A stretch of 62,582 nucleotides of DNA, filler included, from 5 parts of 5 records of this genome joined end to end with filler, not necessarily neighbours in it; one strand, 5' to 3'; shown: positions 22,016-43,355, numbered from the whole stretch's first letter. Program-made: numbers and translations. The notes: generated from the letters alone by a model not told the origin.

Positions 22016-22091
22016 GTTAATTTTTAGGGTAGCTAGCATAAGAATATTATAATCTTCTCATTTTTCTACTGTACATAAGCCAAATCTAAAT

Positions 22092-22138
22092 ATCACTGAA
22101 ATTGGTTACTTAAAATGTAGTGCATTGCGCCAACTTTG
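22092..22138 (+). promoter_or_regulatory. Island box + -7 element upstream of 229-aa gene
   Basis: ATCAC-TGAAATTG-GTTAC (22092-22109), 21-nt gap, CAACTTTG (22131-22138). Confidence 0.6.
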
Positions 22139-22163
22139 TAATTAAACTTAAATTAAAGTAAAT

Positions 22164-22853
22164 ATGGATTTTAAAACAATGCTCCAATTACCAGTATTAG
22201 ATAATAATCAAGTTTTAGAAATGCTTCTAGAGATTGCAGCTATAGAAAGAGATAAGGAAAGACCACAAATGCCACAAGTTACCATTAGTATGAATTTAGA
22301 TAGTACTTCTGGTTTTTTTGTGAATTATGATTCTGACAAGAAAGCAATTTTATTATGTGATTTATTTGACGGGAAGGCTCAATTTAATTACATATCAGCT
22401 CATGCTATTTCTTCAATTTCAATAAGTAACATTAATAAATATGCCTACCTTTTATCTGACGGAAAAATTCCTTTCATTCCTGAAGATGAAGAAATACCAA
22501 CTATACTTCAGCTAAAAAAAGATATCAAAGATTTAGAGTTAGTAGTAAAGTCTATTATAGATAAAGAAATTTCCATAGTTTATAATGATAAGAATACACC
22601 AGAAGATACAGGGAAATATTATGCATTAAAAGTATTAGTTTTACTCAAAGAAACAATTTCTAGAATAGCTTCAGATTCATTGGCTAAAGAAGCTTTTATA
22701 ACTTCAGTTTCAAAAATTGAATTTAATCTAGCTAAAGAGAATAAAACTAGAATAGTAGAAGGTGTACTTTTTATTACAATAGACACTTCTAAAGTATTTA
22801 GAAGTTTTCCAAATGCAATCCAATTACAAGAACAAATAGAAGCTCATTTATAA
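22164..22853 (+). CDS. Hypothetical protein (C-terminal half resembles neighbouring 131-aa protein)
   Basis: 229-aa ORF; D-LAKEA...V-KI...EGVL pattern shared with 23044-23439. Confidence 0.75.
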   Translation: MDFKTMLQLPVLDNNQVLEMLLEIAAIERDKERPQMPQVTISMNLDSTSGFFVNYDSDKKAILLCDLFDGKAQFNYISAHAISSISISNINKYAYLLSDGKIPFIPEDEEIPTILQLKKDIKDLELVVKSIIDKEISIVYNDKNTPEDTGKYYALKVLVLLKETISRIASDSLAKEAFITSVSKIEFNLAKENKTRIVEGVLFITIDTSKVFRSFPNAIQLQEQIEAHL

Positions 22854-22977
22854 AATTAAGTAAGAATCTAATGTAGTTAGTAGAATAGAGTTATTAATAT
22901 AAAAAAATAAGAATACAAAAAAACACTTGTATTAAGCCAATGTGATTACAGTTTTAACATGGAATGTTATTCTGATG

Positions 22978-23016: not shown

Positions 23017-23043
23017 GACCCCTCAAAATAATGTCATTATATT

Positions 23044-23439
23044 TTATAAGTTATTCTCTAAATATTCGCGTATTACTAAGTCTGTAAAGTATCCACTGTG
23101 ATGGCCTCCCCAACAAGCAGTTAAAGAAAACACACCGTTTTCTAGATTAAGTCCCTTTTTTTCTTCAGCTCCTTCATTTGGAATGCAATAAACCTTTATA
23201 GAGTTAACAACCTCTTGAACAGCTTCTTTTCCCATAGCATCTTTACAAACTTCTCTTAAACCATCAGTAAGGCGTTGCAAGCATACACTAGGAACAAATT
23301 TTATGAAATCCATTTCAAAAGTATCCCAATTAATGTTTATAGGTAATTCTTTACCAACCACCTCATTAATTTCTTTTTGATAATCTCCTAAATATTGATC
23401 TTCTATAGCCTTTGCAGCTCTTTTTTCTTGTAATCCCAT
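23044..23439 (-). CDS. Hypothetical protein
   Basis: 131-aa ORF with its own promoter box and downstream terminator. Confidence 0.8.
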   Translation of the reverse strand: MGLQEKRAAKAIEDQYLGDYQKEINEVVGKELPININWDTFEMDFIKFVPSVCLQRLTDGLREVCKDAMGKEAVQEVVNSIKVYCIPNEGAEEKKGLNLENGVFSLTACWGGHHSGYFTDLVIREYLENNL

Positions 23440-23468
23440 GATATTTATATTAGTATTATTTTATAATT

Positions 23469-23570
23469 CAAAGATATTAGAACACATTCTCAAATAAACA
23501 CCTCATTTAAGTGATAATATAAATTCACGGAAAACAGTGAGCGTTTAAAACTTGAACAGACTTAAATTTA
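23469..23570. promoter_or_regulatory. Divergent pair of island boxes + -7 elements
   Basis: Minus: box 23498-23515 (revcomp ATCAC-TTAAATGA-GGTGT), 21 nt, TATCTTTG (23469-23476). Plus: TTCAC-GGAAAACA-GTGAG (23524-23541), 21 nt, TAAATTTA (23563-23570). Confidence 0.65.
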
Positions 23571-23590: not shown

Positions 23591-24574
23591 ATGAAAACTA
23601 TAATTATTATAGGTCTTTGCTTATTAGGAATCTTACTTCTTTTTACTAATTGCGCACAAATAGTGGGTGGAATATCTAAGAAACAAGCCTCTAAAAATTT
23701 AGAAGAATATCTTGAAAGAGAGTATAATGGTGAGCTTACTTATAAAAATTTAAATAGATTTTTTAATGCAGCTACTATGAATCCTAATTCATTTTCTGTA
23801 CATATATATCATAAAAAAAATCCTGATATAGAGTTTTACACATATTTTGATGCTAAAAAAATATTGATTGCCGATTATATAGCTTCATATCACATAGAAT
23901 TTAATGATCTATATCAAAAAGCATTGAAATATCATGAAGCTAAACAAGCGGTAATTGTAGATTTTAAAAGTGATATTCTAGATGTAAAATATGGTTTAGC
24001 GGTGATTGAATTAATTTTTAAAGAAGCACTAACTTCAGATACATTGGAAGAAATAATTACCAAATTTGTTGATAAATTGAATGCTTCCTATGACGTATTA
24101 AATAATGGTTATGAACACAGCTTATTAGTTAAAACACCTAGTTACCCTGAAGGATTCATAACAGTGCCTTTGAAATTAGAAGACAATATGTGGAAAGTAC
24201 ATGCTTTTCACTTATCTGAAAATGTAACTAATTTTGAACTTTTTAAAACTAAAATTGAAAATAATATTCAAACCAAATTGGAGCTCACGTATCCTTATTA
24301 TAAAATTAGTGAGTATAGAAAAATATTCTTGGATAAATCTTCTTTATCTAAGGGAGCCTGGGTTCAATATTTAGAAGATACTAGAATAAATAATAAAGAA
24401 AATGAGAAATATCAAAACCCTTTAAAGGGAATTTATATTGTTTATTTTGATTTGGAATCAAGGTTTATTTATCGCGGAGAGATGCTTACAGAAAAGAATG
24501 ATATAACTACATCTAATAAGGAATTAAAAGAGATTAGAGCTGCTTTGGCCTTTTATGATATTAGAACGGAATAG
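23591..24574 (+). CDS. Hypothetical lipoprotein
   Basis: ATG at 23591 gives MKTIIIIGLCLLGILLLFTNC, a signal peptide II-like N-terminus. Confidence 0.7.
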   Translation: MKTIIIIGLCLLGILLLFTNCAQIVGGISKKQASKNLEEYLEREYNGELTYKNLNRFFNAATMNPNSFSVHIYHKKNPDIEFYTYFDAKKILIADYIASYHIEFNDLYQKALKYHEAKQAVIVDFKSDILDVKYGLAVIELIFKEALTSDTLEEIITKFVDKLNASYDVLNNGYEHSLLVKTPSYPEGFITVPLKLEDNMWKVHAFHLSENVTNFELFKTKIENNIQTKLELTYPYYKISEYRKIFLDKSSLSKGAWVQYLEDTRINNKENEKYQNPLKGIYIVYFDLESRFIYRGEMLTEKNDITTSNKELKEIRAALAFYDIRTE

Positions 24575-24661: not shown

Positions 24662-25297
24662 TTAATCAAATAGTCCAGACTCTATTGCAAATCGTACTGC
24701 GCCAGTTGTAGTTTTAGAACCTGTTTTTAATAGGATATTTTTTCTATGCGTTTCTACTGTATTTACAGAGATAAATAATTTTTCTGAAATCTCTTTAGAA
24801 GTAAGCTCTTCTCCTAAAAGCGCTAAGACATCCTTCTCTCTTGGTGATAGTTCGATGTTTTTATATTTTTTGCGTTCAAAAACACTTTCCATATATCGTT
24901 GTTTTATGAGTTCAGAAAAGTATTGTTCATCATTTAAAACGGAACGTACCGCTTTTTGTAGCTCTTCTTTACTTGTAAACTTCGGAACAAAACCGTCTGC
25001 CCCTTTTTGTATGACTTTATGTACTGTTCTATGATTGTCGAGCATGCTCAACATGATTATTTTTACGTCTTTATGCTTTTTTTTAATTTCTGTAAGCAAT
25101 TCTATACCGTCCATTTTGGGCATACTAATGTCGCTTATAATTAAACCAATTTTAAACTGAGAGAGTAATCTAATAACCTGTTTCCCTTCAGTTGCAATAT
25201 GCACTTCTCCAATTTCGTCCATATTTTTTAAAATGGTATTGATCCCTTCAATGAACATTAAATGATCGTCTGCAATTATAATGTTTGTTTTCTCCAC
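24662..25297 (-). CDS. NarL/LuxR-family response regulator
   Basis: IIADDH, SDISMP phosphoacceptor, LSPREKDVL...KEISEKLFISVNTVETHRKNI LuxR HTH. Confidence 0.95.
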   Translation of the reverse strand: MEKTNIIIADDHLMFIEGINTILKNMDEIGEVHIATEGKQVIRLLSQFKIGLIISDISMPKMDGIELLTEIKKKHKDVKIIMLSMLDNHRTVHKVIQKGADGFVPKFTSKEELQKAVRSVLNDEQYFSELIKQRYMESVFERKKYKNIELSPREKDVLALLGEELTSKEISEKLFISVNTVETHRKNILLKTGSKTTTGAVRFAIESGLFD

Positions 25298-25303: not shown

Positions 25304-27271
25304 TTAATTTACTGGTATGTCAATGGTAATTGATGTTCCGCGTCCTGGGCTACAATCGATTTCTAAACTACCTTGAATTTTATGTAAGCGTTCTTTTATA
25401 TTTCGAAGCCCTATTCCCGATTTTTTGTTATTTTGAAAACCTATACCATCATCGTTTATAACAATATTTAAATGATCTTCATGCATGGTGAGTTGAACAG
25501 CAGCATGCTTGGCTTCTGCATGTTTTAGAATATTATTAATTAATTCTTGTACAATACGGTATACGTCTGCTAGTAAGAAATCAGGTAACTCATCAATCGC
25601 TTCTTCTGGAAAGAAAAAAGTTTGAATTTCAGTAGCTGTTTTTTTAGTTATTTGATCAATAAAATCACTTAAAAAACTAGTGAATCCTATTTTTGAAAAG
25701 GGGAGCGGGTGTAATTGATGAGAAAGGCTACGAACATCCGCACAAGCATTATTAATAGCAGAAGCGATTCTCCTAGATTGGAAATCATCATGGTGTTGTT
25801 CTGAATACTGCTCGAACGCTATTTTGATGCTTGCTAAATCGCTGCCAATACCATCATGAATTTCCCGAGCAAGTCTTGAACGTTCTTCATCTTGACCTTC
25901 TTGATAGCGCTCAATAACAGATAGTTTATGATCATTTATCATTTTATTTATTTGCTGCTTAGCATTTTCCTCTTGCTGGATACTCAATTCTTTTTGAATG
26001 CGTAGTCTTTTAATATGAGAAACCCTTAAAATAATTAAAGTAATAAAAACCAATATAAATCCAGCTATTAAAACATTTCTAACTAAGCGTTGGCGTTTTA
26101 CAGTGAGCTCTACTTTTTGCAATTCTGTTTCTCCTAATTTTTGTTCTTTTTCTAATAATTGAATTCTAGCTTCCTTTAATGCTGTTTCATAGCGTTCTTG
26201 TATTTCAGCTACATATACCTTTTTATCAAGTGAGTTTTGCTCCGCAGTACTTGCCACTCCTTTTTGATAGAATTCAAATGCTTTTTTATAATTGTTTTCT
26301 TTTTGATATAAATTTGCCAGATTCTTGTATATGTCGGAACTGTATGGGTGTAGCGATTGTTCTTCGCCAATAGCTAAAGCGCGTTGAAAATAATTTATCG
26401 CTGCAATTGTATTACCTAATTTTGTTTCGCATAAACCTAAATCGTTTAAAACAATACTAATGTCTGAATTAAATTTTAGCTCTTCTAAAAGAGCTAATGT
26501 TTTTTTTAGAGCTACAACAGCTTCTTTACACTTACCTTCTTCCACTAACATTTGCGAAAGATTTATATTTACATAGGCAACAGCCGCTTTATTACCTTCT
26601 TTTTCTCTGTAATCTAAAACGGTTTGGTAATGCTTTCTTGCTTGACTAAACTTACCTTGTTCTTTTAAAATATTTGCAAAATTAAATAGCGTTGTGAGCA
26701 CTCCATCATCATCTCCTAAAGAGCGATAGAGATTGGCAGCACGATCTAGATTTTCTGCTGATTTTTTATAATCTTTTTGAAGCAGATACAATGTTGCTAT
26801 ATTTAGATATGCATTAGCTTCCTGTATTTGGCTATTGGTTTGTTTTGAATACTTTAAGCAATTCATAAAACAGTCAATAGCTTTCGGATATTCACCTAAA
26901 TTTTTATAGGCAGAAGCGAGGATATTATAACAAGCCGCTAATCCTTTTTTAGTGTCCAGTTTTTTAAGTAAATCAATAGCTTGATTTGTATATTTTATGG
27001 TGTTTTTATATTCTCCAATAATATTACTAAGGTTTCCTAATGCATACAAGGCACTTGCTTCTTGAAGTCCCAAATCTGAATTTTTGCTTCCTTCGAGCCA
27101 TTTTGTAGCGGCTAATTTTGCAATTTGGGGTTGCGTATAAATATTGGTATAATAAATGTTTGCAAGAGAATCTAATTCAATCGTACTATCTATGTCTTGA
27201 GCATAAGACAAGGTGCTAATTCCTATATAAAAGAAGAAATTGAATATAAAATATGTAAGAGATAACTTCAT
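25304..27271 (-). CDS. TPR-containing membrane sensor histidine kinase (HisKA_3 type)
   Basis: N-terminal hydrophobic segment, multiple TPR repeats, TM helix, EERSRLAREIHDGIG H-box, RIVQELINNILKHA N-box, DDGIGF, GIGL. Confidence 0.93.
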   Translation of the reverse strand: MKLSLTYFIFNFFFYIGISTLSYAQDIDSTIELDSLANIYYTNIYTQPQIAKLAATKWLEGSKNSDLGLQEASALYALGNLSNIIGEYKNTIKYTNQAIDLLKKLDTKKGLAACYNILASAYKNLGEYPKAIDCFMNCLKYSKQTNSQIQEANAYLNIATLYLLQKDYKKSAENLDRAANLYRSLGDDDGVLTTLFNFANILKEQGKFSQARKHYQTVLDYREKEGNKAAVAYVNINLSQMLVEEGKCKEAVVALKKTLALLEELKFNSDISIVLNDLGLCETKLGNTIAAINYFQRALAIGEEQSLHPYSSDIYKNLANLYQKENNYKKAFEFYQKGVASTAEQNSLDKKVYVAEIQERYETALKEARIQLLEKEQKLGETELQKVELTVKRQRLVRNVLIAGFILVFITLIILRVSHIKRLRIQKELSIQQEENAKQQINKMINDHKLSVIERYQEGQDEERSRLAREIHDGIGSDLASIKIAFEQYSEQHHDDFQSRRIASAINNACADVRSLSHQLHPLPFSKIGFTSFLSDFIDQITKKTATEIQTFFFPEEAIDELPDFLLADVYRIVQELINNILKHAEAKHAAVQLTMHEDHLNIVINDDGIGFQNNKKSGIGLRNIKERLHKIQGSLEIDCSPGRGTSITIDIPVN

Positions 27272-27292: not shown

Positions 27293-29536
27293 TTAATTGA
27301 AATATGAGGTTCTTATTTTAGATTTGATGTCTTTTAACAATTCTAATTCATTATTTTCTAAATCAATATTTAACTTGAAAATTTGTTCTAATAAATTATG
27401 CAGAAGGAATTTATCAGTTTCAAAGTGCGTTTGTACGACCTCTAAATGTTCTAATAATGCGTTAGCAGAAGGATTCTCTTTACTTAAAAGCATAGCGTTG
27501 TATTTGATGTAATCTCCTTCATTCTCTATAGCTTTAGATAATGTTTTAAGTGTGGCTAGCATCATATTATTATTGTCTTTTGGAAATTCAAAAAACGAAT
27601 AGTCTGGATAGCTTTGTAATAATTGGTTAAAACTAGCTAATGCTTTTTTATAATGCTTCCCTGTTTTTAATAAATCGGCTAACAGATAGTCTGTTTTCCA
27701 GTCACTAGATTCTGGTATCTGGGTTTTAATAATTTGGCAAGCAGCAATACTTTTTGTAGTATTAAAATCCTCTTTAGCGCAACTTAATGCTAGTTTTAAA
27801 TAGTAAGCTTTGTTTGTGGCTAGTTGTGCCGCTTGTTGTAATGCATTTGTAGCAGCACAGATGTTACCTAGCATCCAATATATTAAACCATTGGTTCTGT
27901 ATTCTATAAAAGTAGAAGGTTCTTGTATTAAATCTAGTTCTGAAGCGTCTGCTATATCATCAGGTTTTTCTAAATAATCATAAAAACAAATCCACAGAAA
28001 CACAGGATATAATTCTGGTAATAATTGTCCTTGTTCGTGGTTATATATGGCATATTTGTAACATTCTTGATAATTGCCCATTTCAATAAGGGCTTCAATA
28101 CACATATTCATTGTGCTACAATATTCTGAGTCGCCAATAGTATAATAATTGATTTCTGACTGCATATCTTCAAAAAAAGCCGTGTAGTTATGGTTTTGTT
28201 TATGAATAATCATTCTTAAGTTATACAACCATGGTGCGTAAGAATGAGGTGGTAACGGAAAATCAGAAAGCGCTACATTAATCGTTTCCAGAGCTTCATC
28301 AAATTGTCTTAATTTGACGAGTGCACGTGCTTTAAAAAATAAGGTTTTAAGTGTAGGAGGAGTCCCTTTATGAAACTGAGCAACAATATCTAATATACCT
28401 TGCCAATTTTCAATTCTACTATTTACTTCTAGTAAATAAAATAGATATTCACTCAAACGGAGACCGTTTTTAAATGCTTCGTGGTAATTTACTCCGGTCT
28501 CGTTATAATTATTGACAAAAAAAAAGGATTTTGCCTTTAATACCAATAGTAATGGGTTTTTAGGATTTAAAGCTAAGCCTCTTTCTACACTAATATCTAA
28601 GATTTCTTTATTTTTTGAATAAAAATATGCCGAATTTCCTATCAATACATATTGATGTTGTGCCAATTGCCAGCCAGAAGTAGCAAACGCCTTGATAAAC
28701 GTTTGATATTCCTCAAAATTACTATACTCTTCTTCTGGAAACTCTGGTTCTGAAGGTGCTTTTAAAACTTGAGATACCATATCGTACATCATAAAAGATT
28801 TTGCATAATCTGCCAAGAGCATACGTGTTACTGCTGTCAATTCTAAAAGTTTCCATTCTGTATTCCAATGTTGTTTTATTTCAGTAGACCTTTCTTCCCA
28901 CAGTGCAACCTGTATATAGGCTAAAGTTTGATTTGCTTTATCTAATCGATGATCTAATTGTAATCCTTTTAAAACTTCTTCATTATGAGTAGCCGAAGCT
29001 AATTCTAAAAGTTCATAGCAGTTTGCTTCTTCGTTTGATGCACATAAATGTGCTAATTGAGTTGCTTCAATATCCCAAAGTAAGAATCGAGCTTCTGTGG
29101 AGGCAGGATAACATTCTAGGATATATTTTAAAGTAACAATAGCTTCTTTAAAACGTTTATCTTCTTGTAATTTTAAAGCGTAATGTAGGTGTAAAGTTTC
29201 GTTGTATGGATATAGCATTAAAGCTTCTTGGTACACTGTTTCTTCACATTGTTTGTAATAACTACAAACGTATTCGTAATCTGATGCTTCTACTTCATTA
29301 ATGTTAATTAATGCTTGTAAATAAGACTGCAAAACTTGCATATTCAGTTCTTCATAAATCCCAATATACAGCATATAAATGCGGTAATATTTGGCATAGT
29401 CTGAATTATTAGTTAAAAGCTCTAGGTGCTCTTGTATATTACTAATTACAGGCTGTAAATGCATATAAAGGTTGGTCTTGTACAGTTGTTCTGCACGCTC
29501 AATTTGTTGTATAAGCTCTTGTTCTGTTATCCTCAT
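27293..29536 (-). CDS. TPR/alpha-solenoid protein
   Basis: Helical repeats (e.g. KARALVKLRQFDEALETI); ATG at 29536 overlaps the upstream stop (ATGA). Confidence 0.7.
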   Translation of the reverse strand: MRITEQELIQQIERAEQLYKTNLYMHLQPVISNIQEHLELLTNNSDYAKYYRIYMLYIGIYEELNMQVLQSYLQALININEVEASDYEYVCSYYKQCEETVYQEALMLYPYNETLHLHYALKLQEDKRFKEAIVTLKYILECYPASTEARFLLWDIEATQLAHLCASNEEANCYELLELASATHNEEVLKGLQLDHRLDKANQTLAYIQVALWEERSTEIKQHWNTEWKLLELTAVTRMLLADYAKSFMMYDMVSQVLKAPSEPEFPEEEYSNFEEYQTFIKAFATSGWQLAQHQYVLIGNSAYFYSKNKEILDISVERGLALNPKNPLLLVLKAKSFFFVNNYNETGVNYHEAFKNGLRLSEYLFYLLEVNSRIENWQGILDIVAQFHKGTPPTLKTLFFKARALVKLRQFDEALETINVALSDFPLPPHSYAPWLYNLRMIIHKQNHNYTAFFEDMQSEINYYTIGDSEYCSTMNMCIEALIEMGNYQECYKYAIYNHEQGQLLPELYPVFLWICFYDYLEKPDDIADASELDLIQEPSTFIEYRTNGLIYWMLGNICAATNALQQAAQLATNKAYYLKLALSCAKEDFNTTKSIAACQIIKTQIPESSDWKTDYLLADLLKTGKHYKKALASFNQLLQSYPDYSFFEFPKDNNNMMLATLKTLSKAIENEGDYIKYNAMLLSKENPSANALLEHLEVVQTHFETDKFLLHNLLEQIFKLNIDLENNELELLKDIKSKIRTSYFN

Positions 29537-30192
29537 TTTTTCCATTCTTTAAACCAATCGGCATGTGCTATATGTAAGCGTTGGTAGTGCTCCCAAAGTG
29601 TTTCTGTCCCTGGGAATTTACTAACATCGAGTTCTGTAGCCCCTAAAACGTACTCATCTCCCAAGCACACGTTGCGGTGAAATTCTCCCCAACTAGAAAA
29701 CGTGGACTTTGTAATATTGTAGGCTTCTTCTAAACGCAACATCATTTCTTCTGTTGTTATAAAGTCTAAGACGAGGCCTAATCTCATTTGAAAAATGTAC
29801 ATTGCCATTTCATATCCTCTGAGTTTTTGATTTTTTAAACTGAAACGATATTTCCACACCATTTTGTAGGTGTTTTTGGTTTTAGGACTTTCTAGAGCTT
29901 GGTATTTAGCTTCAAAAGTCTTACTGGTATCATTGCGAAACGCTGCGGCTAATTTTTCAAAAGTATGAGATACCATTTGTCCGCTCTCGTAACGTTGTAA
30001 ACTGTTCCGTAAATGCAAGCCTGATTTAATACCGTACATAGTTAAAAGTCTTTCCGCATGCTTAACGTGCATTGCATCTTTTAGGTTAAAACCCGACCAA
30101 CTTTTTAAGGCTGCGTTTTTATGATTTTTCTTCAAAATCAAGGCCGATAAATTTAATTGGTTCTGAATTTTGGGTGTGATATCTTGTGTCAT
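29533..30192 (-). CDS. DUF1266 (YbeR/YbeU-like) family protein
   Basis: Pattern GYE...RLG...ITTEE...FSSWGEF...LG resembles the DUF1266 C-terminal consensus. Confidence 0.55.
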   Translation of the reverse strand: MTQDITPKIQNQLNLSALILKKNHKNAALKSWSGFNLKDAMHVKHAERLLTMYGIKSGLHLRNSLQRYESGQMVSHTFEKLAAAFRNDTSKTFEAKYQALESPKTKNTYKMVWKYRFSLKNQKLRGYEMAMYIFQMRLGLVLDFITTEEMMLRLEEAYNITKSTFSSWGEFHRNVCLGDEYVLGATELDVSKFPGTETLWEHYQRLHIAHADWFKEWKK

Positions 30193-33798: not shown

Positions 33799-33878
33799 CT
33801 AAGGTACTTTGAACTAATGAGTTCTTTATCCCTGAAACTAATGATTTTGAAAATAACGAAATACTTCTAGAGAGTGAT
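33799..33878 (-). promoter_or_regulatory. Island box + -7-like element for the SMI1 operon
   Basis: ATCCC-TGAAACTA-ATGAT (33828-33845), 21 nt from TACCTTAG (revcomp of 33799-33806); second box ATACT-N8-GTGAT at 33861-33878. Confidence 0.6.
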
Positions 33879-33991
33879 GCATCAGAATTACTTTACGGTA
33901 TAATGGAAATTTAAATACACCAAGGCTTGCCTTGGATCTAAAAATACATTTTTTATAAAATGCCTAATGCGTTGGCAATTGGCATACTGAT

Positions 33992-35125: not shown

Positions 35126-35992
35126 TTATAGCATATTCTCTACTTTAATATCTGAACTCCCAGAAGCATTAAATCTATTGGTAGCGGCACCTGGTTTATG
35201 GTTGTTAATGACCACTTCTGCAATCCGTTTTGCCACGGATTTAAAATCTGGTATTTCCATATAATTTTCGCCTAAAAGCGTTTTCCAATTTCCCTTACGT
35301 TTTTCTTGCTTAGACAATTCATTATGTTCTAAATGCATATGAAAAACATTGTATTTCTCTTGAGCCTCTTTAATAATGGCTTCTGTAGTTATGGTTTCTG
35401 CCTCATCTGCAAGGGTATATCTCTTTATAATTTCAGCAGGAATGTCAGAAGAAACAGGTTCATCACCAATGGTAAATAAAAATCCTTTTTGTTGTCTTTT
35501 TTCCCAACAATCAATCGATGTATGTCTTGCAGCAAATAAATGTGCTAGATTATAGCCTTCTTGATTGTTTCCACCTCCGCCACCTTCTAAATAAACTCGG
35601 GTTAACCAACGGTCTAATAACTCTGCTGATGACTCAAATTGTCCAACTTGTAATGGTGCATTATCATAAATAAAATCTCCAATGCCTAAAAATAACACTT
35701 GTGGATGTTCAATACCAGCTTCCATTAAAGAACCAATAAGGTCTGGCAAAGCTTCTTTTACAATATGCTCTGGCACAAACCCCATACTTCCTGTTACATC
35801 TAAAGCAACAATAATAGAAAGCGTTTCAGGATGTTCCTCAGAATCTCGAGACTCTCTAACTATTACTTTTGTAGGATCCATTTCAGGATCTATTTGTCTA
35901 GCCGTAAAAATTTCTTCTCTAGATTTATTACTGTAGCCTTTAGATTTTCTCAATCGAGAATACGCATCGTGACTAAATCTTCCTCCTCCCAT
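35126..35992 (-). CDS. vWA (MIDAS) domain protein
   Basis: ALDVTGSMG MIDAS motif, LQVGQFES, EGGGGGN..EGY, FTIGDE. Confidence 0.8.
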   Translation of the reverse strand: MGGGRFSHDAYSRLRKSKGYSNKSREEIFTARQIDPEMDPTKVIVRESRDSEEHPETLSIIVALDVTGSMGFVPEHIVKEALPDLIGSLMEAGIEHPQVLFLGIGDFIYDNAPLQVGQFESSAELLDRWLTRVYLEGGGGGNNQEGYNLAHLFAARHTSIDCWEKRQQKGFLFTIGDEPVSSDIPAEIIKRYTLADEAETITTEAIIKEAQEKYNVFHMHLEHNELSKQEKRKGNWKTLLGENYMEIPDFKSVAKRIAEVVINNHKPGAATNRFNASGSSDIKVENML

Positions 35993-35994
35993 AG

Positions 35995-36345
35995 TTATAA
36001 TTCGTTTATTGTTCCACCAAATAAATGTAAATAACGTTTTTTGGCTAATTCTAATTTTATTTCTAAGTTCCTTATTTTTACAGACATTTCGATGTCTTTT
36101 GCTACGTAATCTTTCGCATTAAAATCGGATGCTAAGACCAGACTGTTGGCATCTGTAGGGCTCATATCAAGCATATTTTCTTGTTCACGTTTTAAGCGTT
36201 TTAGCGATAATGCCAAATCTTCGGTTTCACGTTTGTACATTAATTGTGCATCTTCTGCAATTGCATGCGCACGATCGTCTCTTATTTTTTCGTTATTGCG
36301 TTTTAATGATGCTATAAACGCTGCACTCTTTACTTGATCTTCCAT
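35995..36345 (-). CDS. Small coiled-coil hypothetical protein
   Basis: 116 aa, charged helical; first gene of a tight 3-gene operon. Confidence 0.75.
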   Translation of the reverse strand: MEDQVKSAAFIASLKRNNEKIRDDRAHAIAEDAQLMYKRETEDLALSLKRLKREQENMLDMSPTDANSLVLASDFNAKDYVAKDIEMSVKIRNLEIKLELAKKRYLHLFGGTINEL

Positions 36346-36361: not shown

Positions 36362-36522
36362 CAAATTTAGAGCTAATCTTTTTAGATTTTATCCCCGAAA
36401 TAGGGGATTTTTGGCTTTTTAGTATATGCGTTAATTTAAATAATTCTAAAAAGGAATAGCTTCAAGATATAAAATATCACGGAAGATAGGGATTAAAAAT
36501 ATAGATTAAGCTATTATTTTTG
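36362..36522. promoter_or_regulatory. Divergent pair of island boxes + -7 elements
   Basis: Minus: ATCCC-CGAAATAG-GGGAT (36391-36408), 21 nt, TAAATTTG (36362-36369). Plus: ATCAC-GGAAGATA-GGGAT (36476-36493), 21 nt, TATTTTTG (36515-36522). Confidence 0.75.
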
Positions 36523-36540: not shown

Positions 36541-37446
36541 ATGATTGCGTTACATTTATCTCCAAAAGGTTTTCAAATAAATTCAAGAATGGTTGAGTTT
36601 CCAGTGTCTTTGGATGTGTTAAAAGACCATTTAACTAAAAATTATCGAACCTTAAAGAAGAAAAACAATACTATTTTTACTTGGGATGATCTAGGAATAT
36701 TGGCTTACTCAAAAAGTGGGGAACTTATAGAATCTATAATTATAGAATTACAACCTGAAACCTATGACTTTAGTCCAAAAAAAGCATTTTCAGGGATATT
36801 TCATTACAACAATCAAGAAATTGTAAGCTACTATAAATCGCATAAAAACCAGCATATAAAATTATTTAAAAATGATGATAGTGGTGCTTTAGTCTCGAAT
36901 GGCATTAGTGCTTGGTTTGATATGAACGAAGACACCGTTAGCGCAATAGAAATAAGTGCTTACAAACCGTATGTGCGTTGGGAAGGAATACCGGAAGATA
37001 AATACAAAATTAAGCGACTTGATGAAGAAGTTATTACTTTCGAAGATTTTGGATTTAAATTATCGGTTATTGAAGAGCTAATGTATACTAAAGAATTGTT
37101 GAAGCCTCAATTTGATATTCACGAATTTGCAAAATGGTATAGAGGTCGCGAGATAGATATTGATGAGGAAGGTTACGGGCCTATTGCTGAAGTAGAACAA
37201 TATTTTAAAGATTTACCAATCCCAAAGCGTTTGGCTGAAGAAGTTACAGAAATCTATCAAGATGGCGGAAACGAAATTTATATGAATTTAGCTCCTTTTT
37301 CTGGTGGAGCAGTGGAGTATTGGGATATTGAACACAGTACCGATGCAAAACAGTTCCCTAATTTAAAAAAAGCAACCTTATGCTATGCTAAAGATACTAT
37401 TTATGATGAGTTTATTGAAATGGGTATTGATACAGAATGGTTGTAA
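36541..37446 (+). CDS. DUF6892-like domain protein (putative immunity-type)
   Basis: C-terminal FEDFGFKLSVIEELMY...LKPQFD...YQDGGNEIY...FPNLK; N-terminal TWDDLGI motif. Confidence 0.6.
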   Translation: MIALHLSPKGFQINSRMVEFPVSLDVLKDHLTKNYRTLKKKNNTIFTWDDLGILAYSKSGELIESIIIELQPETYDFSPKKAFSGIFHYNNQEIVSYYKSHKNQHIKLFKNDDSGALVSNGISAWFDMNEDTVSAIEISAYKPYVRWEGIPEDKYKIKRLDEEVITFEDFGFKLSVIEELMYTKELLKPQFDIHEFAKWYRGREIDIDEEGYGPIAEVEQYFKDLPIPKRLAEEVTEIYQDGGNEIYMNLAPFSGGAVEYWDIEHSTDAKQFPNLKKATLCYAKDTIYDEFIEMGIDTEWL

Positions 37447-37526: not shown

Positions 37527-37940
37527 TTACCAATACGTACCCACTAAAAATGTCATTCTAATAAAGGTAACAATACTTTTCGAAGTTAGTTTTAGCGGCG
37601 TTTTTAAATCGGTAATTTCCTTATTGTCTATAAAGACTACAAAGAGTCCGTCTTTAAAGGCTAATAAAACATTGTCGATTGCTTTTTGCAGATTTGCTAA
37701 ATCGGTGTTGGTTATTTCTCCAAAATCTACTTTACCCTTTTGCGCTTGTTCTTGTATTTCGGCTGGACTTAAAAAACCAATAACATTGACTTCTTGTAGT
37801 TTTGCATTAAAAGCCTCAACTTGATGTTTTACACAACCAACTAATAAGGCTTCTAAGTTTTTAGGTGATTCTTCTAAGGTAAAAGGAACTTCTTTTACTT
37901 TTTTCTTCCCGAGTTTTTTTAGTTGTAATGTAAGTTCCAT
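37527..37940 (-). CDS. Small hypothetical partner of DUF4132 protein
   Basis: 137 aa, GKVDFG...AFKDGLF...FIRMTFLVG; directly downstream of the DUF4132 gene. Confidence 0.7.
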   Translation of the reverse strand: MELTLQLKKLGKKKVKEVPFTLEESPKNLEALLVGCVKHQVEAFNAKLQEVNVIGFLSPAEIQEQAQKGKVDFGEITNTDLANLQKAIDNVLLAFKDGLFVVFIDNKEITDLKTPLKLTSKSIVTFIRMTFLVGTYW

Positions 37941-38061: not shown

Positions 38062-41000
38062 TTAGCTATTTATTTGCGCTAAAATTGTTGGATCTTGTAT
38101 TTTATGATCTTCTGAAAGTAATTTCATTTTAGAAATAATTTCTGCTGATTTGGGGTCGTCGTCTATAAATGGTAAAAACATACGACCTCTATGCTGACTA
38201 TGCACTGGAATGATAGATAATGCAAGTCCGTTTTTGCTTACCTGACCACTTCCTAAATGTATGGTGTATTCGCCAAATGTACCTTTTATAAATATGTAAC
38301 GTTCTTTTACGGTACTATTTTTAAGTTTGAATAAGCTTGCTGAAGCTGTAGCCAATGCAGCACGCATTTGTATAGTACTATGGCTGGCTTCTGGATCTAC
38401 TCCACCAACGTGAGCAACACTAACTACAAGATCGATGTCTCTCATTATTTCACTAAATATTACCGGTGGAATTTCAGAGAGAGGAATGGTTTTATAGTTT
38501 TCTATAGAGTGAAAACGAATATCCTCCAAGGTTGGTGCTTCGGCATCTGATGGGGAATACCAGTCGGCCATAGCATACATTGTAGCTATAAAACCGTATT
38601 TATGATAAACTTTTTGTAAGCCATCTTCCATACTCACGGTCCAACCACGACCTCTTAAAAGTGCTACGGTTTTTTTAGGCTGAATTTGATATCCTTGGTA
38701 ACGTTCTGAGCGGTTACTATGTTCACGCTCATCATTGGTTATTAAATATAATTCTCTAAAAACTTGTTTAAATGGTTGGGTAATCCGTTCTGCAAATAAA
38801 TATTTTTGGTAGCTATCCCATTCAACTACTTGGAACAAATGAGAAGCATGTGCAATAAGCAAAACATCATCTTCAGCTAACGAATGTGTTTTTCCATGAA
38901 AATCTGTTAAAATACCTTCATCATAAAAACCTGAAATCTCTTTTTGAGGAACGTACATTACTAACTTACTCAACATCACTTGTACAATAGGATGTTGCAT
39001 CATACTATGAATTTCTAAAGCAGTAAATTCATCTTCGTTGACCATTGCGTTTTCTAATGATAAACGTGTTCTACTGTATTGTCTAGAAAGATAGGTTTTG
39101 TTGTCTTTTAAGGCTATAACCTGTTTTTCTTTGCGTAGTTTGGCTGGAATATTTTTTAATAATTTTCCAGCTTTGGAAACCTTAATCTCTGTTTTACCAT
39201 GGTTTGTAATGACGAGTTCTATAACCGTTTCATCTATGGTTATAACTGCATTTTTCATTATTGCTTGGGTAGCTTTTGCTTCCATAGCCCAACTAAAACG
39301 CACACGATCTTGGTAGCCCGCATTTCGAGATAAATTATCTAAAGCAATCTCCACTGCAATAGCTTCGCTTTCTTGTCGTTGTTGACCAAACTGTTTACTT
39401 TCTTTTAAAAAGTCTTGTAGTAGATTGTAGCGTTTTAATAAATCTTTTTCTGGAACGGTTTTACTTAAAGGAATTAATCCTAATGCGCGCACGTAATCTT
39501 TATCACGTTTTTCTTTAATTTTTTGTAGGGTTTCGGTAATTTTAACTTCCCCTAGTATAACACTAGAGTATAATTTTACTTGTCTGTGTCCATTACCATC
39601 TGTAATATATTTTGCAGCCTTATGAAGTAGTTTCCAGTTTGCTTTACCTAAGCTATTATATACTTTATTAAACCAATCGATATCTATTGCGCCTAACGAG
39701 AAATCGTTTTTTGGGATGTTAGAGTACCGGGAAATAATAGTTTCTTTTTCGCTATTCATATAATCTGAAGCGTGCGCTTGAAACCACCAAACAGCATTTT
39801 CTAAATTATCAATTTTTAAATATTGGCCCACAACACTAGCCCACTGCGTAGCATAACACGCCAATTCTATAAAACGTATTTTGCTAATTTTTAAAGCATC
39901 TGCAAGACTAGCAAAATCAGCATAAGATTCGGTGTCTTTAAACTGGGTCATTTTGAGGATAGCACTAAACTTAGACTTTTTACTATCTCCATAATAGCTG
40001 TACCCGCGCTCAAAAGTTTCTTCTCCTAAACGTTCTAGAACTCTGAATACATAATCAACACCTTCAACTCTATGAATTGCATTAATGTAATTAGAAGCAG
40101 GTGTTGCCAAATCTCCTCGTTCTAACTCTGTTTCTAATAAATTGGTTTTTAAAGGGAGAAAGACTTCTTTAGGAATTGTATTTTGCTTTAATCCATTTTT
40201 GTAATTCATCCTATAATTAAAACCACCATCAATAATGGTTATTAATTGATTTTTATTTAAAGCTTGGAGAAGTAAATCATCGTTGTTAATTAAACCGTTT
40301 TCATATAGTTTTAAGGTGGTTTCAATCTCAGGAAATTCCAGATTACTTCTTTTTTCTGAATTATCAGTAAGCACTTTAATATTTGAAGCAACTGTAGGGT
40401 GTGTAATGTTTTGTGCTATTAAATACATTTTAATATTCCAGTACTTTAAAAGTTGCTCTGAAGTAAGTTGGTTTAAATTATTGACACTAAAATTTGGGGT
40501 TAATTGAAGTATTATACTTGTCCAATTATAAGTTGTTGTATAATGGTAACCATTATCTTGAAACTTTATTAATTTAAATTTATCAGGGAAATTAGCAATC
40601 ATGTCTTCGAACATATGAAGTTTAAAGTCGGCTACTGTGCTGGTGTCTACATATGCCCTAAATAAACGCTTTAAAATTTTGTTATAACTATTTAACCTAG
40701 AGTAATGGGTGTCTTTATTTCCTATACTTAATCCAGATAAGTCTGGGTAATATTGCCTTAAAAATGGTTCTAATATTTTATAATATCCGTAAGGGTAACT
40801 ACTATTATTGATATAACGTATGGCAGCATACATTTCAAAATCATTGAGCTCACTTTTTTTATACCATTCTATCCATAAGTGGGCTAAAGGAATATTATGC
40901 AAATGGTCTTCTGCTGTAGCATCATCCCTCAATTCTTTTATTTGGTGAAGCCCTTTCTCTATATATGTAGTATGCATTTCTCCTTGATACCCTTCCATTT

Positions 41001-43062
41001 GGTATTCATAATGTCGGTTTTCGGTAACAAGAGCAATCAATAGATTTACTTGAGTAACTATTTTGTTGACATTAATAAATTCTTTAAACTTAAAGGATGA
41101 AGAGTCTGAGGTTGAAATTCCTAATTTATCTAAAAAACTAGTTTTTGTTTTAAAATGAGATTGTGGAATATAAAGTGGTGATAAATCATCATAATTTACC
41201 GCTCCAAAACCATTATTATAATTATATTCTTGCGTATTGTTTGAAAACTTATCTAAATAGACTTGTTCGTTTTTAGAGATTTTAGGACGCTCGTTATAAA
41301 GGCTTATTTGCGTTTCAATAAAATCCGATTGTCTATTGGCGTCGTGTAAAATAGTTAATACTTCTAAACCAGCTAATCGCTGATCAATATTTTTTGCTGT
41401 TACTAAATTTGTAACACTCTTTCTTAAGCGGTCTACTGGCAAGTCAACCAACAACTGAATTAAAGAGGTACGTAATCCTTTATGTTTTCGTCTTAGTAAA
41501 TCTTCAGCAATTTCCAAATCTGCGTCATACAAATGCATTTTACTAAATAAATTCAATCCCGTAGCCATAACTACCTCATTTCGGTTATAAATAGCACGTC
41601 TAGCTAAAGCTCTTTTCCAAAAATTTTGGTCATAATTGAGGCGCTCTTTTTTCTTAGACTGTTGCTGATAATTATTAAAAGAATAGCTATAATGTAAAGG
41701 AAATACTTTACGAATATAGGTTTCTCTATATTCTGTAGGAAATTCTTCAAAATCGTTCGCCATTAACTCTAATTGTGCTTCTGTAGCGCTATTGATAATA
41801 AACTGGAAGAAATACGTTGGTTCAGGTGTAAAGCTCCACCACGAGAATATTTTACTTTCGAAGGTTTTGCCTTTTTCTGTCACAGATTTTGCAACCGTTA
41901 ATAGGCGCTCAAAAGTATCATTATTTAATGTGGTAGGAGGTAAGTTTACCGCCATCCAATGGTCTAATGCATAATCTTTTCCTAGCTCTTTAGTAAAATA
42001 TGGTACTAAGGCATCATTAGTACGCTCTGTTTTCCAAATAAAATACAATGCTAAAATCTTCTTGTTTCTATCTTCGGAAGAGAAAACTATATCTAGTGCT
42101 TTCCTATTTGCTGTATCGACGTCTAAAATTCCTATAGCCCATAAACCGACTAAAACTTCTAAATTGTCTTTACTTTTAAGATAGCCATCTACTTCTTTTA
42201 AATTTAAAATTAAAGATTGTGCAAGTGTTAAAACACGATTTATAACTGGTTTTTTAGGGAGATCCCATCTTAAGCCAAACCAAGTACTAACAGCTCTAGT
42301 TACACTACTAAAGCGTGTTAAATCATTTTCTAATACCACATTGATTATATGTTTAAGCGCACCAAGACTAGACTCGTCTAGCGATTCTAAAATGGTTTGC
42401 CTTAAACCTTCTTGGCGTTGAGCCGCAAGTAATAATTTAGAGACCATCTCCCAATGTTTTTCCTCATCAGAAAGTAACAGCGCTTTAATAATATCTGCAC
42501 TAATTCCTCCAATTTCATCTTCACCTTGAATAATATTGTCTAGTAATTCATCGAAAACTCCTTCGGCATTGTGAAGAACTGAGGCTAAAAAATAACTGCT
42601 AAAATTAGGATGATACGTACTGTATATAAAGTGTTCTTGAAGTGTTAATCCATTATAACCCATTCTACTAAATTGTAAAAATCGGATTAAGTAATTTATT
42701 TTATTAATTAAAATATCTTTTGATGGTTTTGATCTAAATGCTTGTCTATCATAACCTTTTTGATAAGGTAGTGTGTTCATAAAATCCCACATGCCAGCTA
42801 GATAAGGTGCATGTACCACCCCGTAAAGTTGCATTGCTAGGCGCATACCTTCTTCATTCGACCAAGGATTTATAGTAAGCGGATCATCAAATGCTGCAAT
42901 AAAATCTGAAACATTATACCATACTCTTTCTTCTTTTTCGATTCTTCCTAATATTTTCCCTAAAATTTTATAAGGTTCAGAGAACAACCGAAATTCAAAA
43001 CGGTCTACTTCTGGTTTTTGATGTTTTTCGATGTATTTATTAGCGTCTTCTATTGGAATCAT
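38062..43062 (-). CDS. Giant DUF5724/DUF4132 (MolR-like) protein
   Basis: 1666 aa; LLLAAQRQEGLRQTILE, ESKQFGQQRQ, QPFKQVFRELY, FSEIMRDIDLVVSVAH, IHLGSG, LPFIDDDPKSAEIISK. Confidence 0.8.
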   Translation of the reverse strand: MIPIEDANKYIEKHQKPEVDRFEFRLFSEPYKILGKILGRIEKEERVWYNVSDFIAAFDDPLTINPWSNEEGMRLAMQLYGVVHAPYLAGMWDFMNTLPYQKGYDRQAFRSKPSKDILINKINYLIRFLQFSRMGYNGLTLQEHFIYSTYHPNFSSYFLASVLHNAEGVFDELLDNIIQGEDEIGGISADIIKALLLSDEEKHWEMVSKLLLAAQRQEGLRQTILESLDESSLGALKHIINVVLENDLTRFSSVTRAVSTWFGLRWDLPKKPVINRVLTLAQSLILNLKEVDGYLKSKDNLEVLVGLWAIGILDVDTANRKALDIVFSSEDRNKKILALYFIWKTERTNDALVPYFTKELGKDYALDHWMAVNLPPTTLNNDTFERLLTVAKSVTEKGKTFESKIFSWWSFTPEPTYFFQFIINSATEAQLELMANDFEEFPTEYRETYIRKVFPLHYSYSFNNYQQQSKKKERLNYDQNFWKRALARRAIYNRNEVVMATGLNLFSKMHLYDADLEIAEDLLRRKHKGLRTSLIQLLVDLPVDRLRKSVTNLVTAKNIDQRLAGLEVLTILHDANRQSDFIETQISLYNERPKISKNEQVYLDKFSNNTQEYNYNNGFGAVNYDDLSPLYIPQSHFKTKTSFLDKLGISTSDSSSFKFKEFINVNKIVTQVNLLIALVTENRHYEYQMEGYQGEMHTTYIEKGLHQIKELRDDATAEDHLHNIPLAHLWIEWYKKSELNDFEMYAAIRYINNSSYPYGYYKILEPFLRQYYPDLSGLSIGNKDTHYSRLNSYNKILKRLFRAYVDTSTVADFKLHMFEDMIANFPDKFKLIKFQDNGYHYTTTYNWTSIILQLTPNFSVNNLNQLTSEQLLKYWNIKMYLIAQNITHPTVASNIKVLTDNSEKRSNLEFPEIETTLKLYENGLINNDDLLLQALNKNQLITIIDGGFNYRMNYKNGLKQNTIPKEVFLPLKTNLLETELERGDLATPASNYINAIHRVEGVDYVFRVLERLGEETFERGYSYYGDSKKSKFSAILKMTQFKDTESYADFASLADALKISKIRFIELACYATQWASVVGQYLKIDNLENAVWWFQAHASDYMNSEKETIISRYSNIPKNDFSLGAIDIDWFNKVYNSLGKANWKLLHKAAKYITDGNGHRQVKLYSSVILGEVKITETLQKIKEKRDKDYVRALGLIPLSKTVPEKDLLKRYNLLQDFLKESKQFGQQRQESEAIAVEIALDNLSRNAGYQDRVRFSWAMEAKATQAIMKNAVITIDETVIELVITNHGKTEIKVSKAGKLLKNIPAKLRKEKQVIALKDNKTYLSRQYSRTRLSLENAMVNEDEFTALEIHSMMQHPIVQVMLSKLVMYVPQKEISGFYDEGILTDFHGKTHSLAEDDVLLIAHASHLFQVVEWDSYQKYLFAERITQPFKQVFRELYLITNDEREHSNRSERYQGYQIQPKKTVALLRGRGWTVSMEDGLQKVYHKYGFIATMYAMADWYSPSDAEAPTLEDIRFHSIENYKTIPLSEIPPVIFSEIMRDIDLVVSVAHVGGVDPEASHSTIQMRAALATASASLFKLKNSTVKERYIFIKGTFGEYTIHLGSGQVSKNGLALSIIPVHSQHRGRMFLPFIDDDPKSAEIISKMKLLSEDHKIQDPTILAQINS

Positions 43063-43130
43063 ATCTTGTATTGCTTTATACCTATCATAAACATGAGTTA
43101 TTCACCTCTTAAAAATGGTGATAATTGTTT

Positions 43131-43177
43131 GCAATATAACAGTAATTCCAATTTTTGTTCTCACGGTATTTAATGAT
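43131..43177 (-). promoter_or_regulatory. Island box + -7-like element for DUF4132 operon
   Basis: CTCAC-GGTATTTA-ATGAT (43160-43177), 21 nt from TATATTGC (revcomp of 43131-43138). Confidence 0.6.
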
Positions 43178-43355
43178 ATTTTTTAATACAGATTTTACTA
43201 AAATTTAGAATATCACAGAATCTATGGCCAATAGTTTTTAAAAGCGCTTTGTAAAATTAAAATGAATTATAGTAATGTTATAAAAGAGTTTCAGCTCTAT
43301 TACTTAATTTCTTGGAAATGGAAACTGAAGTTTTCAATATGTTTCTTTGCGGTTC

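Follow-up and report, generated by a model that had tools for sequence, protein, structure and literature searches.

Dimeric regulators of the LuxR, FNR and NarL types activate transcription by touching RNA polymerase from a position at approximately -42.5, and the lux box is also positioned near -42.5. LiaSR and VraSR are autoregulating pairs of a HisKA_3 kinase and a NarL-family regulator, which control small stress regulons. Here we describe a locus that resembles both kinds of systems. It is located in a DNA stretch of 62,582 bases (the window), which is composed of five assembly contigs, and corresponds to the third of them (22016-43355; 21,340 bp). This contig harbours 15 genes in seven transcription units on both strands. 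Each unit is preceded by an 18-bp palindromic box, which is followed after exactly 21 nt by an element similar to the -7 element of Bacteroidota promoters. One of the units encodes a two-component system. Most likely, a dimer of a NarL/FixJ-type regulator binds to this box, and we consider it probable, judging from the sequence comparisons described below, that this one two-component system activates all operons of the island together, in a class-II-like manner and with positive feedback.

In common with LuxR/TraR-type and NarL/FixJ-type activators, the palindromic boxes of which overlap the -35 region, the locus has a regulator with a GerE/LuxR helix-turn-helix, an 18-bp inverted repeat with a presumed centre at about -42.5, and a box in front of the regulator's own operon. 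In contrast to LuxR/TraR, the input would be a phosphorylated receiver fed by a kinase with tetratricopeptide repeats (TPR) and not an autoinducer-binding domain; the N-terminus of the protein is a receiver, while LuxR-type quorum-sensing regulators carry the autoinducer-binding domain at this place. Further, the promoters are of the Bacteroidota -7/-33 type, and the sequence of the box was not found in the literature, where its 14-mer core gave no match and its 9-mers matched unrelated papers only. With LiaSR and VraSR the locus shares a HisKA_3/HATPase_c kinase encoded beside a regulator with a receiver (REC) and a GerE domain, and an apparent positive autoregulation. It differs from them in its sensor, a predicted periplasmic TPR domain of approximately 370 residues behind a signal peptide, and in its regulon, which is large and strain-variable and contains genes of unknown function instead of envelope-repair genes.

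Two types of defence-related gene clusters are also comparable. Polyimmunity loci contain families including SUKH, DUF2314 (= Imm34), ankyrin and leucine-rich repeat (LRR) proteins (Zhang et al. 2012, PMC3482391). According to the available text of that study, none of the immunity proteins known from polymorphic toxin systems functions as a transcription factor, and the term "two-component" does not occur in that text. As far as this source allows a comparison, our locus resembles polyimmunity loci by the presence of SUKH, by DUF2314-Ank and LRR proteins in the related island of Winogradskyella arenosi, and by a content that varies between relatives. However, its genes are arranged in seven units on both strands and not in one co-directional array, and it includes enzymes (PurA-like, EndoV-like, 2OG oxygenase, GNAT) and its own two-component system. 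Arrays of at least four recognised immunity genes in tandem, which characterise polyimmunity loci, were found in neither genome: SUKH-1 is the only such family in the window, and in W. arenosi DUF2314-Ank and three LRR proteins are scattered. The AID and rAID-1 clusters of Bacteroidales are described as accessory mobile clusters with repetitive intergenic sequences, the transcription of which is induced in co-culture with a competitor (Ross et al., 10.1101/471110). Defining features of rAID-1 are a XerD-like recombinase at the 5' end and genes that all point in one direction, and the accessible part of the report mentions no regulator for the induction (10.1101/471110). As far as this part of the report goes, the locus is similar in being accessory and mobile and in having repetitive intergenic sequences, the competitor induction being reported for AID/rAID-1. 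It has neither a XerD-like recombinase nor co-directional genes, and shows only an integrase-like contig end of 30 nt. In contrast to rAID-1 as described there, the repeat appears to be a promoter-operator, and the island itself codes for a candidate sensor and a candidate regulator.

The proposed mechanism, a two-component regulator acting at a palindromic box over the upstream promoter region, is of a known kind. New are the box, the rigid promoter grammar, the regulator clade and a wiring that connects mobile genes of unknown function over the whole island, for none of which we found a description in the literature. Likewise, no publication was found that joins immunity genes, response regulators and type VI secretion in Flavobacteri*.

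The palindromic box and its promoter grammar

An earlier note on this DNA described an imperfect palindrome, ATC[A/C]C-N8-G[T/G]GAT, exactly 21 nt upstream of a -7 element at all seven transcription units. The arrangement was confirmed: at all seven positions exactly 21 nt separate the box from a TAnnTTTG-like octamer on the side of the downstream gene, which by far exceeds chance expectation according to the matrix, clustering and spacing analyses given below. The proposed consensus, on the other hand, proved too loose. Only two of the seven sites match it exactly (0.18 expected; two matches are reached in 2 of 100 shuffled sequences), and when two mismatches are allowed, which is necessary to include all seven, it occurs at 50 places in the window versus 51.5 expected. 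Alignment of 29 sites from five species revealed instead a contiguous 18-bp palindrome with the 9-bp half-sites ATCACTGAA|TTCAGTGAT, in which the former N8 "spacer" is itself conserved. T2 and G14 are present in all 29 sites and C3 and A17 in 28 of them; an A is found two bases 5' of the box in 28 of 29 sites, and an A-rich run is located 3' of it. In the -7 element, the A at position 2 and the T at positions 5 and 6 are each present in 29 of 29 sites and the final G in 26 of 29, so that the box promoters have the TAnnTTTG element of the primary sigma factor of Bacteroidota. In the window the -7 elements of three promoters agree fully with TAnnTTTG, and four of the seven differ from it, as the earlier note had stated, namely in one to two bases.

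The seven promoters are distributed over the contig as follows. Promoter 1 (22092-22138, plus strand; box 22092-22109, -7 element 22131-22138 with C as the first base, matrix score 18.9) drives the gene of a 229-aa protein, and orthologous sites exist in the genome G004, which belongs to the same genus, and in W. arenosi. Promoter 2 (23469-23515, minus strand; box 23498-23515, -7 element 23469-23476, score 15.0) drives the gene of a 131-aa protein; its box is the weakest one, and only the distal half-site is kept in relatives. Promoter 3 (23524-23570, plus strand; box 23524-23541, -7 element 23563-23570, score 21.4) belongs to a lipoprotein gene. Promoter 4 (33799-33845, minus strand; box 33828-33845, -7 element 33799-33806), with a score of 31.7, drives the SUKH-1 operon and lies directly downstream of a terminator-like hairpin (33920-33935) which closes the PurA-like operon. 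The latter is driven by promoter 5 (36362-36408, minus strand; -7 element 36362-36369), the box of which (36391-36408) is the most symmetric copy. Promoter 6 (36476-36522, plus strand; box 36476-36493, -7 element 36515-36522) drives the DUF7738-DUF6892 gene. Finally, promoter 7 (43131-43177, minus strand; box 43160-43177, score 12.6) has a -7 element with two mismatches (43131-43138), and its deviant ending recurs at the orthologous promoter in W. arenosi. Approximately 50 nt beyond this box a degenerate box-like string (43213-43230) with the left half-site only was noticed at the position of a divergent box, which in W. arenosi (566800) drives the gene of an 837-aa LRR protein; no -7 element is present 21 nt away from this string, and the contig ends before any LRR gene there.

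In Flavobacterium psychrophilum the TAnnTTTG element of the primary sigma factor was mapped at -12 to -5, as given in the available part of PMC9723704. Because we took the -7 elements of the island to be at the same position, the box would span about -51 to -34 with the centre at -42.5, over the -33 region, in agreement with the overlap proposed in the earlier note. A TTG at approximately 17-22 bp upstream of the -7 element, which would correspond to the -33 element, was detected in 1 of 25 box promoters and in 7 of 38 other upstream regions bearing TAnnTTTG, a weak signal in a small set.

The box combined with the -7 element was further evaluated with a composite matrix consisting of the box, 21 unscored bases and the -7 element, which was trained on 22 sites from four other species. 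In the 62.6-kb window this matrix recovers exactly the seven reported sites and nothing else, apart from one of the seven being matched in reverse orientation as well, and windows generated by a first-order Markov model contain 0.12 matches at the same threshold. Since the 22 training sites had been found with a matrix from the seven sites of the window, this recovery is a test of consistency and not a blind one. The spacing was analysed in 334 kb using box-only matches chosen without any information on the -7 element. Among 50 such matches, 47 have a -7 element with at least five of six matching positions at a distance of 12-30 nt; the best spacing includes 21 nt in 46 of these 47, while every other spacing accounts for at most 1.4 of them. 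In the same 334 kb, 58 composite sites with at least 17 bits are present. None is located in a coding sequence and 54 are positioned at most 200 nt upstream of an open reading frame (ORF) on the same strand, the median distance between the -7 element and the ATG being 23 nt.

The earlier note had also suggested a genome-wide comparison of the motif including orthologous islands. We performed it on the genomes of relatives, not on the window's own genome, with the composite consensus allowing up to three mismatches and with the reversed pattern as a control. The matches cluster at the islands, and the reversed pattern yields zero to one match per genome. In W. arenosi all seven matches are found within 46 kb of a 3.7-Mb genome, and in Winogradskyella marina eight of nine are on the island contig, the ninth being upstream of a paralogous kinase-regulator pair. 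Six of eight matches in Winogradskyella vidalii and four of five in G004 are at the island, while the island-less conspecific genome G001 has one chance-like match. The eight other genomes of the genus (g1) have 0, 0, 0, 0, 0, 0, 0 and 2 matches. At least one match is present in 146 of 401 genomes of the family, mostly just one, and in the corresponding table, read by eye, clustered matches are seen in G047, G341 and G415 only. In five genomes of other Flavobacteriaceae genera (G054, G346, G305, G259 and G254) the same type of box with the 21-nt spacing was seen dispersed around the chromosome.

In aligned orthologous intergenic regions the box and the -7 element stand out as conserved blocks amid diverged spacers. 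Divergent pairs show insertions and deletions in the DNA that separates their two boxes, but in no case between a box and the -7 element belonging to it, and the gap of 21 nt is kept at the orthologous promoters of G004, W. vidalii, W. marina and W. arenosi. The SUKH and DUF5724 promoters are examples of promoters with sub-consensus -7 elements that are likewise kept across species.

A function of the box as a hairpin or terminator was considered and rejected, because it is the sequence and not pairing alone that is conserved, and because the box is situated upstream of the -7 element. The box 36391-36408 had come up as terminator-like on the plus strand in a scan of the E. coli sigma-70 type, which is uninformative for this phylum, and no plus-strand gene ends there.

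The candidate regulator and competing explanations

The response regulator is encoded at 24662-25297 (minus strand), and the gene of the sensor histidine kinase (25304-27271, minus strand) is located 6 nt upstream of it. In the regulator a receiver domain (Pfam Response_reg, 2.1e-27) precedes a GerE/LuxR helix-turn-helix (PF00196, 2e-14, residues 150-204), and the phospho-acceptor D56 as well as K106 are invariant across 10 aligned regulators. Thus, with the receiver containing Asp and Lys, the GerE domain and the cognate HisKA_3 kinase alongside, the protein has all the characteristics of the NarL/FixJ type. The kinase consists of a signal peptide, TPRs at residues ~25-393, a transmembrane segment at 394-412, HisKA_3 (2e-8) and HATPase_c (6.6e-13). 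Because of the signal peptide, the extent of the TPRs up to residue ~393 and the single membrane span, the sensor domain is predicted to face the periplasm. The best NCBIfam names for the two proteins, MctS and MctR, were discarded, as they refer to a rhizobial pyruvate-symporter system and the scores are far below the cut-off.

A contiguous palindrome suits a dimer of the GerE/LuxR type, which makes the NarL-type regulator the candidate reader of the box; apart from its helix-turn-helix, no DNA-binding domain was detected on the contig. The long box-driven operon closes with the genes of kinase and regulator, suggestive of autoregulation. We propose that a presumed extracytoplasmic signal would reach the TPR kinase, that the kinase would phosphorylate the regulator, and that a dimer of the phosphorylated regulator would bind the 18-bp box at approximately -42.5. 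Contact to RNA polymerase from there would activate all operons of the island together in the class-II-like manner, and positive feedback would result from the box in front of the kinase-regulator operon itself. At other loci of related genomes, this box would serve paralogues from the same clade. Activation as the presumed sign of the regulation is in line with the weak -7 elements, since their conservation across species argues for dependence on an activator.

The co-occurrence of regulator and box points in the same direction. An orthologue of the regulator (76-91% identity) adjoins the boxes in six of seven islands, namely in the window, G004, G042, G043, G044 and G047. Within genus g1, a regulator of this clade is present in G004 only (E = 4.8e-103); the best matches in the other nine genomes are no better than 7.5e-32, none of these nine has a box cluster, and none of the box-poor genomes among them (0/9) reaches 1e-40. 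In the family, the cross-check covered eight genomes with high and five with zero match counts out of the 401. All eight genomes for which at least five composite matches were read from the table harbour a clade regulator at E <= 7.6e-42 (three orthologues with ~90% identity and five paralogues with 39-43%), while in the five zero-hit genomes no regulator match below 1e-36 was obtained and none reaches 1e-40. Moreover, in four of six paralogous kinase-regulator operons, with kinases of ~700 aa, a composite box is located directly upstream of the kinase gene. These data suggest that, within the Flavobacteriaceae, autoregulated kinase-regulator pairs of one clade may have this type of box in common. 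The proposal of the earlier note, that the regulator of the island reads the box, is thus backed by co-occurrence and by the apparent autoregulation; it has to be modified insofar as the box is not private to the island and is also carried by paralogous pairs with 39-43% identity.

Several observations weigh against a control of all operons by the island's own two-component system. The island of G415 lacks an orthologue of the regulator, the best match being 39% identical and encoded ~100 kb away, and its box-driven genes mean that the island's own regulator is not strictly required. Two of the six paralogous operons have no box at the threshold used. The sets in the co-occurrence analysis were partly chosen by box count, the cut-off of 1e-40 was set after the scores had been seen, and the genomes are related. 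The residues of the recognition helix that are shared by the island regulator and its paralogues had to be dropped as evidence, because they are common to the whole NarL family and do not discriminate. Last but not least, a box over the -33 region is also in a possible position for a repressor.

The first of these observations could be explained if the box were read by a regulator encoded outside of the island, either an unlinked factor or a paralogous pair only, with the kinase and regulator of the island being part of the cargo. The dispersed boxes of the same type in G054, G305, G259 and G346 would fit as well as the box-driven island genes of G415 without an island-type regulator. We nevertheless regard this as unlikely: all box-rich genomes tested contain this regulator clade, which is found in 0 of 14 box-poor ones; in G004 the island regulator is the only member of the clade while four of five boxes are at the island; and no other DNA-binding domain was detected on the contig.

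Alternatively, the box could be a repression operator. A dimeric helix-turn-helix protein bound to it, be it the NarL-type regulator or a different one, would then shut off the island as long as no signal arrives. Such a site would overlap the region which RNA polymerase must contact, the search for a -33 TTG failed to separate the box promoters from other promoters (1/25 versus 7/38), and the promoters with the three perfect -7 elements might fire unaided. However, four of the seven -7 elements are sub-consensus with deviations conserved across species, which fits dependence on an activator, and the rigid phasing of 21 bp is typical of a contact between activator and polymerase, whereas steric occlusion would tolerate variable positions. 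In addition, proteins of the NarL/LuxR type are usually activators when they act at approximately -42. Repression therefore appears rather unlikely to us.

It is quite improbable that the palindrome is mainly a site for recombination or cassette capture, as in integrons or in rAID-1 of Bacteroidales, with a position at promoters that is only secondary. This idea could account for a cargo which varies by species and includes single genes or tandem paralogues each with its own box (a DUF1444-like trio in G047, and W. arenosi), for the end of the island contig in an integrase-like fragment, and for the likeness to rAID-1 clusters, for which repetitive intergenic sequences are described in the accessible part of the report (10.1101/471110). 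Yet the distance of the box to the -7 element is fixed at 21 bp and the box invariably points to a gene start, kinase-regulator operons that are not part of any island have it upstream as well, and no recombinase gene was found among the box-flanked genes of the window, the ORFs of the island or the W. arenosi proteins scanned. Finally, that a loose AT-rich palindrome was picked by eye beside common TAnnTTTG-like strings, as the count for ATCMC-N8-GKGAT with two mismatches could suggest, is refuted by the matrix recovery across species, the genome-wide clustering in comparison with the reversed pattern, the spacing test and the phylogenetic footprints, and has practically no probability left.

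Outside of the islands, G415, G054 and G047 were seen to harbour a box-preceded operon with genes for a ~700-aa kinase and a 214-aa regulator, and in G415 and G047 this operon is followed by conserved genes for proteins of 139 aa and 205 aa. In G047 the 205-aa protein matches SIMPL, and the 139-/205-aa genes have an own box and are followed by a gene for a LipL32-like lipoprotein. This looks like a separate small regulon with the same type of box.

The island in related genomes and its possible role

The island contig was not found in G001. G004 contains a rearranged version, collinear versions exist in W. vidalii, W. marina and W. arenosi, and further versions in G047, G341, G155 and G415. 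Since it was not found in G001 and since its chromosomal context differs between G004 and W. arenosi, the island is strain-variable and mobile. The most extended version was analysed in W. arenosi, where the same regulon spans ~51 kb (520.7-572 kb of a 986-kb contig), includes 13 composite boxes, all of which precede a gene or operon and are correctly oriented, and adjoins a cluster of three tRNA genes at its right end. Thus, the "21-kb island" of the earlier note does not describe the size of the element but that of one contig. The additional cargo in W. arenosi, which is box-driven or neighbouring, comprises Hcp/TssD-like, VWA_3, two DUF1963, DUF2262 and YAcAr/SLOG proteins, a DUF2314 protein with ankyrin repeats, a 2OG-Fe(II) oxygenase, EndoV-like, GNAT, SIMPL and DUF1444 proteins, and three LRR proteins. 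In addition, a second two-component pair, consisting of a TPR sensor kinase of the His_kinase family and a LytTR regulator, is encoded downstream of the DUF6892 gene inside a box-driven unit (8939-11617 of the W. arenosi stretch), as is the case in W. vidalii and W. marina; the window contig lacks this pair, and the stretch of G004 examined did not show it either. In G047 (4278-7171 of the stretch) three tandem genes for proteins of 204-211 aa each have an own box promoter, and the 211-aa protein, the one of the three that was scanned, matches DUF1444. From this arrangement it seems that a duplicated gene takes its promoter cassette with it.

The sequence relationships of the island differ from those of the chromosomal core. 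The regulator is 90% identical in G047, 91% in G044 and 76% in G004, and for the 116-aa protein of the PurA-like operon the corresponding values are 93%, 91% and 78%. At the nucleotide level the island is 71.0% identical to G004, 72.3% to G044 and 76.7% to the part of G047 examined. The fourth contig of the window (43456-56633), in comparison, is 99% identical to G001 over its full length, ~80% identical to G004 of the same genus, and 68-75% identical to G044, G047 and G415. The proteins of the island are thus nearer to those of other genera than to those of G004, the reverse of the core contig, and because of this reversal the island has probably spread horizontally among marine Flavobacteriaceae, with the caveat that the assembly contains a foreign-looking contig with up to 57% G+C and its purity is not assured.

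Based on its gene content, an inducible role of the island in defence or counter-attack is a fair hypothesis. The earlier note had assigned to it a cargo of immunity-like proteins, DUF4132, von Willebrand factor A (vWA) and a PurA-like enzyme. The presence of SUKH-1, DUF1266, DUF5724-DUF4132-DUF7737, DUF7738-DUF6892, PurA-like and vWA-like proteins was verified, but SUKH-1 is the only recognised immunity family in the window. It is tempting to speculate, although we consider it a tentative idea, that the island is a portable and self-contained alarm regulon, in which the periplasmic TPR kinase would detect attack or envelope damage and switch on a changing cytoplasmic arsenal. The latter would include SUKH, DUF2314-Ank, LRR and DUF1266/TPR proteins as immunity-like binders, the PurA-like enzyme with vWA, EndoV-like and 2OG oxygenase proteins as nucleotide or DNA repair-type functions, and the giant DUF5724-DUF4132 protein. 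If true, new cargo would join the regulon by acquiring a promoter grammar of 47 bp (box, 21 bp, -7 element), the locus would be the first inducible island for interbacterial defence with a circuit defined from the sensor to the operator, and it would offer a mechanism for the expression of Bacteroidales AID clusters that is induced by competitors, as far as it is described in the available part of the report.

The description of the island is important for several reasons. Regulatory circuits of Flavobacteriaceae are poorly mapped, and here a testable circuit with sensor kinase, regulator, 18-bp operator, rigid promoter grammar and up to 13 target operons can be read from the sequence. It provides a handle on more than 12 families of unknown function, among them DUF5724/DUF4132, DUF6892/DUF7738, DUF1266 and the phage-shared pair of vWA-like and PurA-like proteins, since the signal that induces the island should point to what the cargo proteins do. 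If this signal were the attack by a competitor or phage, the induction of immunity-type islands would be explained.

Gene content and limits of the contig

The contigs of the window (1-15064, 15165-21915, 22016-43355, 43456-56633 and 56734-62582) are joined by N44-TTAATTAATTAA-N44 linkers, and both limits of the island contig are linker-flanked contig ends, not biological borders. The last 30 nt at its 3' end (43326-43355, minus strand) are identical to a part of a tyrosine-integrase gene of G001 (984-2303 of the stretch examined; Arm-DNA-bind_5, Phage_int_SAM_5, Phage_integrase), which adjoins tRNA-Ser, and are also present in G004. Inward of them the sequence of the window diverges, and the frame stops after eight codons. 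The 30 nt may be either an integrase remnant or a repeat that broke the assembly. The last contig (56734-62582) has a G+C content of 45-57% in comparison to ~32% elsewhere in the window, codes for a MoaA-like radical-SAM protein and a FAD-dependent oxidoreductase, and matched neither G001 nor G004. The contig would represent foreign DNA or else a contaminant, which casts doubt on the purity of the assembly. An Rfam scan of the whole window gave no match.

At the left end of the island contig, the gene of the 229-aa protein (22164-22853, plus strand), for which no Pfam family was found, is followed in G004 and W. arenosi by a gene for a protein of 130-133 aa, the W. arenosi copy of which matches the Hcp/TssD family; this Hcp/TssD-type gene is absent from the window. 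The 131-aa protein (23044-23439, minus strand) belongs to no family and is 85-89% identical in G044 and G047. For the predicted lipoprotein of 327 aa (23591-24574, plus strand), which has a signal peptide ending in Cys and no family, the start codon is the ATG at 23591 and not the TTG at 23552, since the latter is upstream of the promoter.

The six-gene operon, all on the minus strand, starts with the gene for a 350-aa protein with a C-terminal SUKH-1 (SMI1/KNR4) domain (32722-33774) and continues with those for an 833-aa protein without family (30196-32697), for which an atlas search gave only uninformative leads with low scores, a 219-aa DUF1266 protein according to Pfam (29533-30192) and a 750-aa cytoplasmic TPR protein (27293-29545), followed by the kinase and the regulator. 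On the plus strand a 301-aa DUF7738-DUF6892 protein (Pfam; 36541-37446) is encoded. The 1666-aa DUF5724-DUF4132-DUF7737 protein (38062-43062, minus strand) forms an own unit with a 137-aa protein (37527-37940, minus strand), which has no family and no own box. Its gene is always found downstream of the DUF5724 gene in relatives and is probably co-transcribed with it.

Except for the lipoprotein and the kinase, no signal peptide or membrane segment was detected in the 15 proteins of the contig. Searches against Pfam (with a relaxed threshold), NCBIfam, PADLOC and PHROGs revealed nothing for the 229-, 131-, 327-, 833-, 116- and 137-aa proteins, and sequences from the Protein Data Bank did not match the 1666-, 301- and 833-aa proteins. 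In the literature no mention of DUF5724, DUF6892, DUF7738 and DUF7737 was found, and none of the mentions of DUF4132 was judged relevant.

The three-gene PurA-like operon, also on the minus strand, begins with the gene of a 116-aa protein (35995-36345), which has no family and is 78-93% identical in six relatives. Its last gene (33992-35125) encodes a 377-aa PurA-like enzyme, which scores 96.5 bits against a cut-off of 402 for the PurA equivalog (NF002223) and is therefore not a PurA by this measure; the closest family is the phage adenylosuccinate-synthetase-like phrog_1211 (1.2e-50). Between them a 288-aa vWA-like protein with a MIDAS-like D-x-T-G-S motif is encoded (35126-35992). It is named VWA domain protein in some sources, and the nearest named atlas clusters are VWA_4, with a low score of 0.83. 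The protein has at least 7,970 homologues, many of them 57-88% identical across phyla, and a tblastn search detected it in 218 phage records, 200 of which are Mycobacterium phages. In the Vibrio phage Va1 (4001-6083 of the stretch) the vWA-like gene is directly upstream of the PurA-like gene, and therefore the two genes form a module that moves between phages and bacteria.

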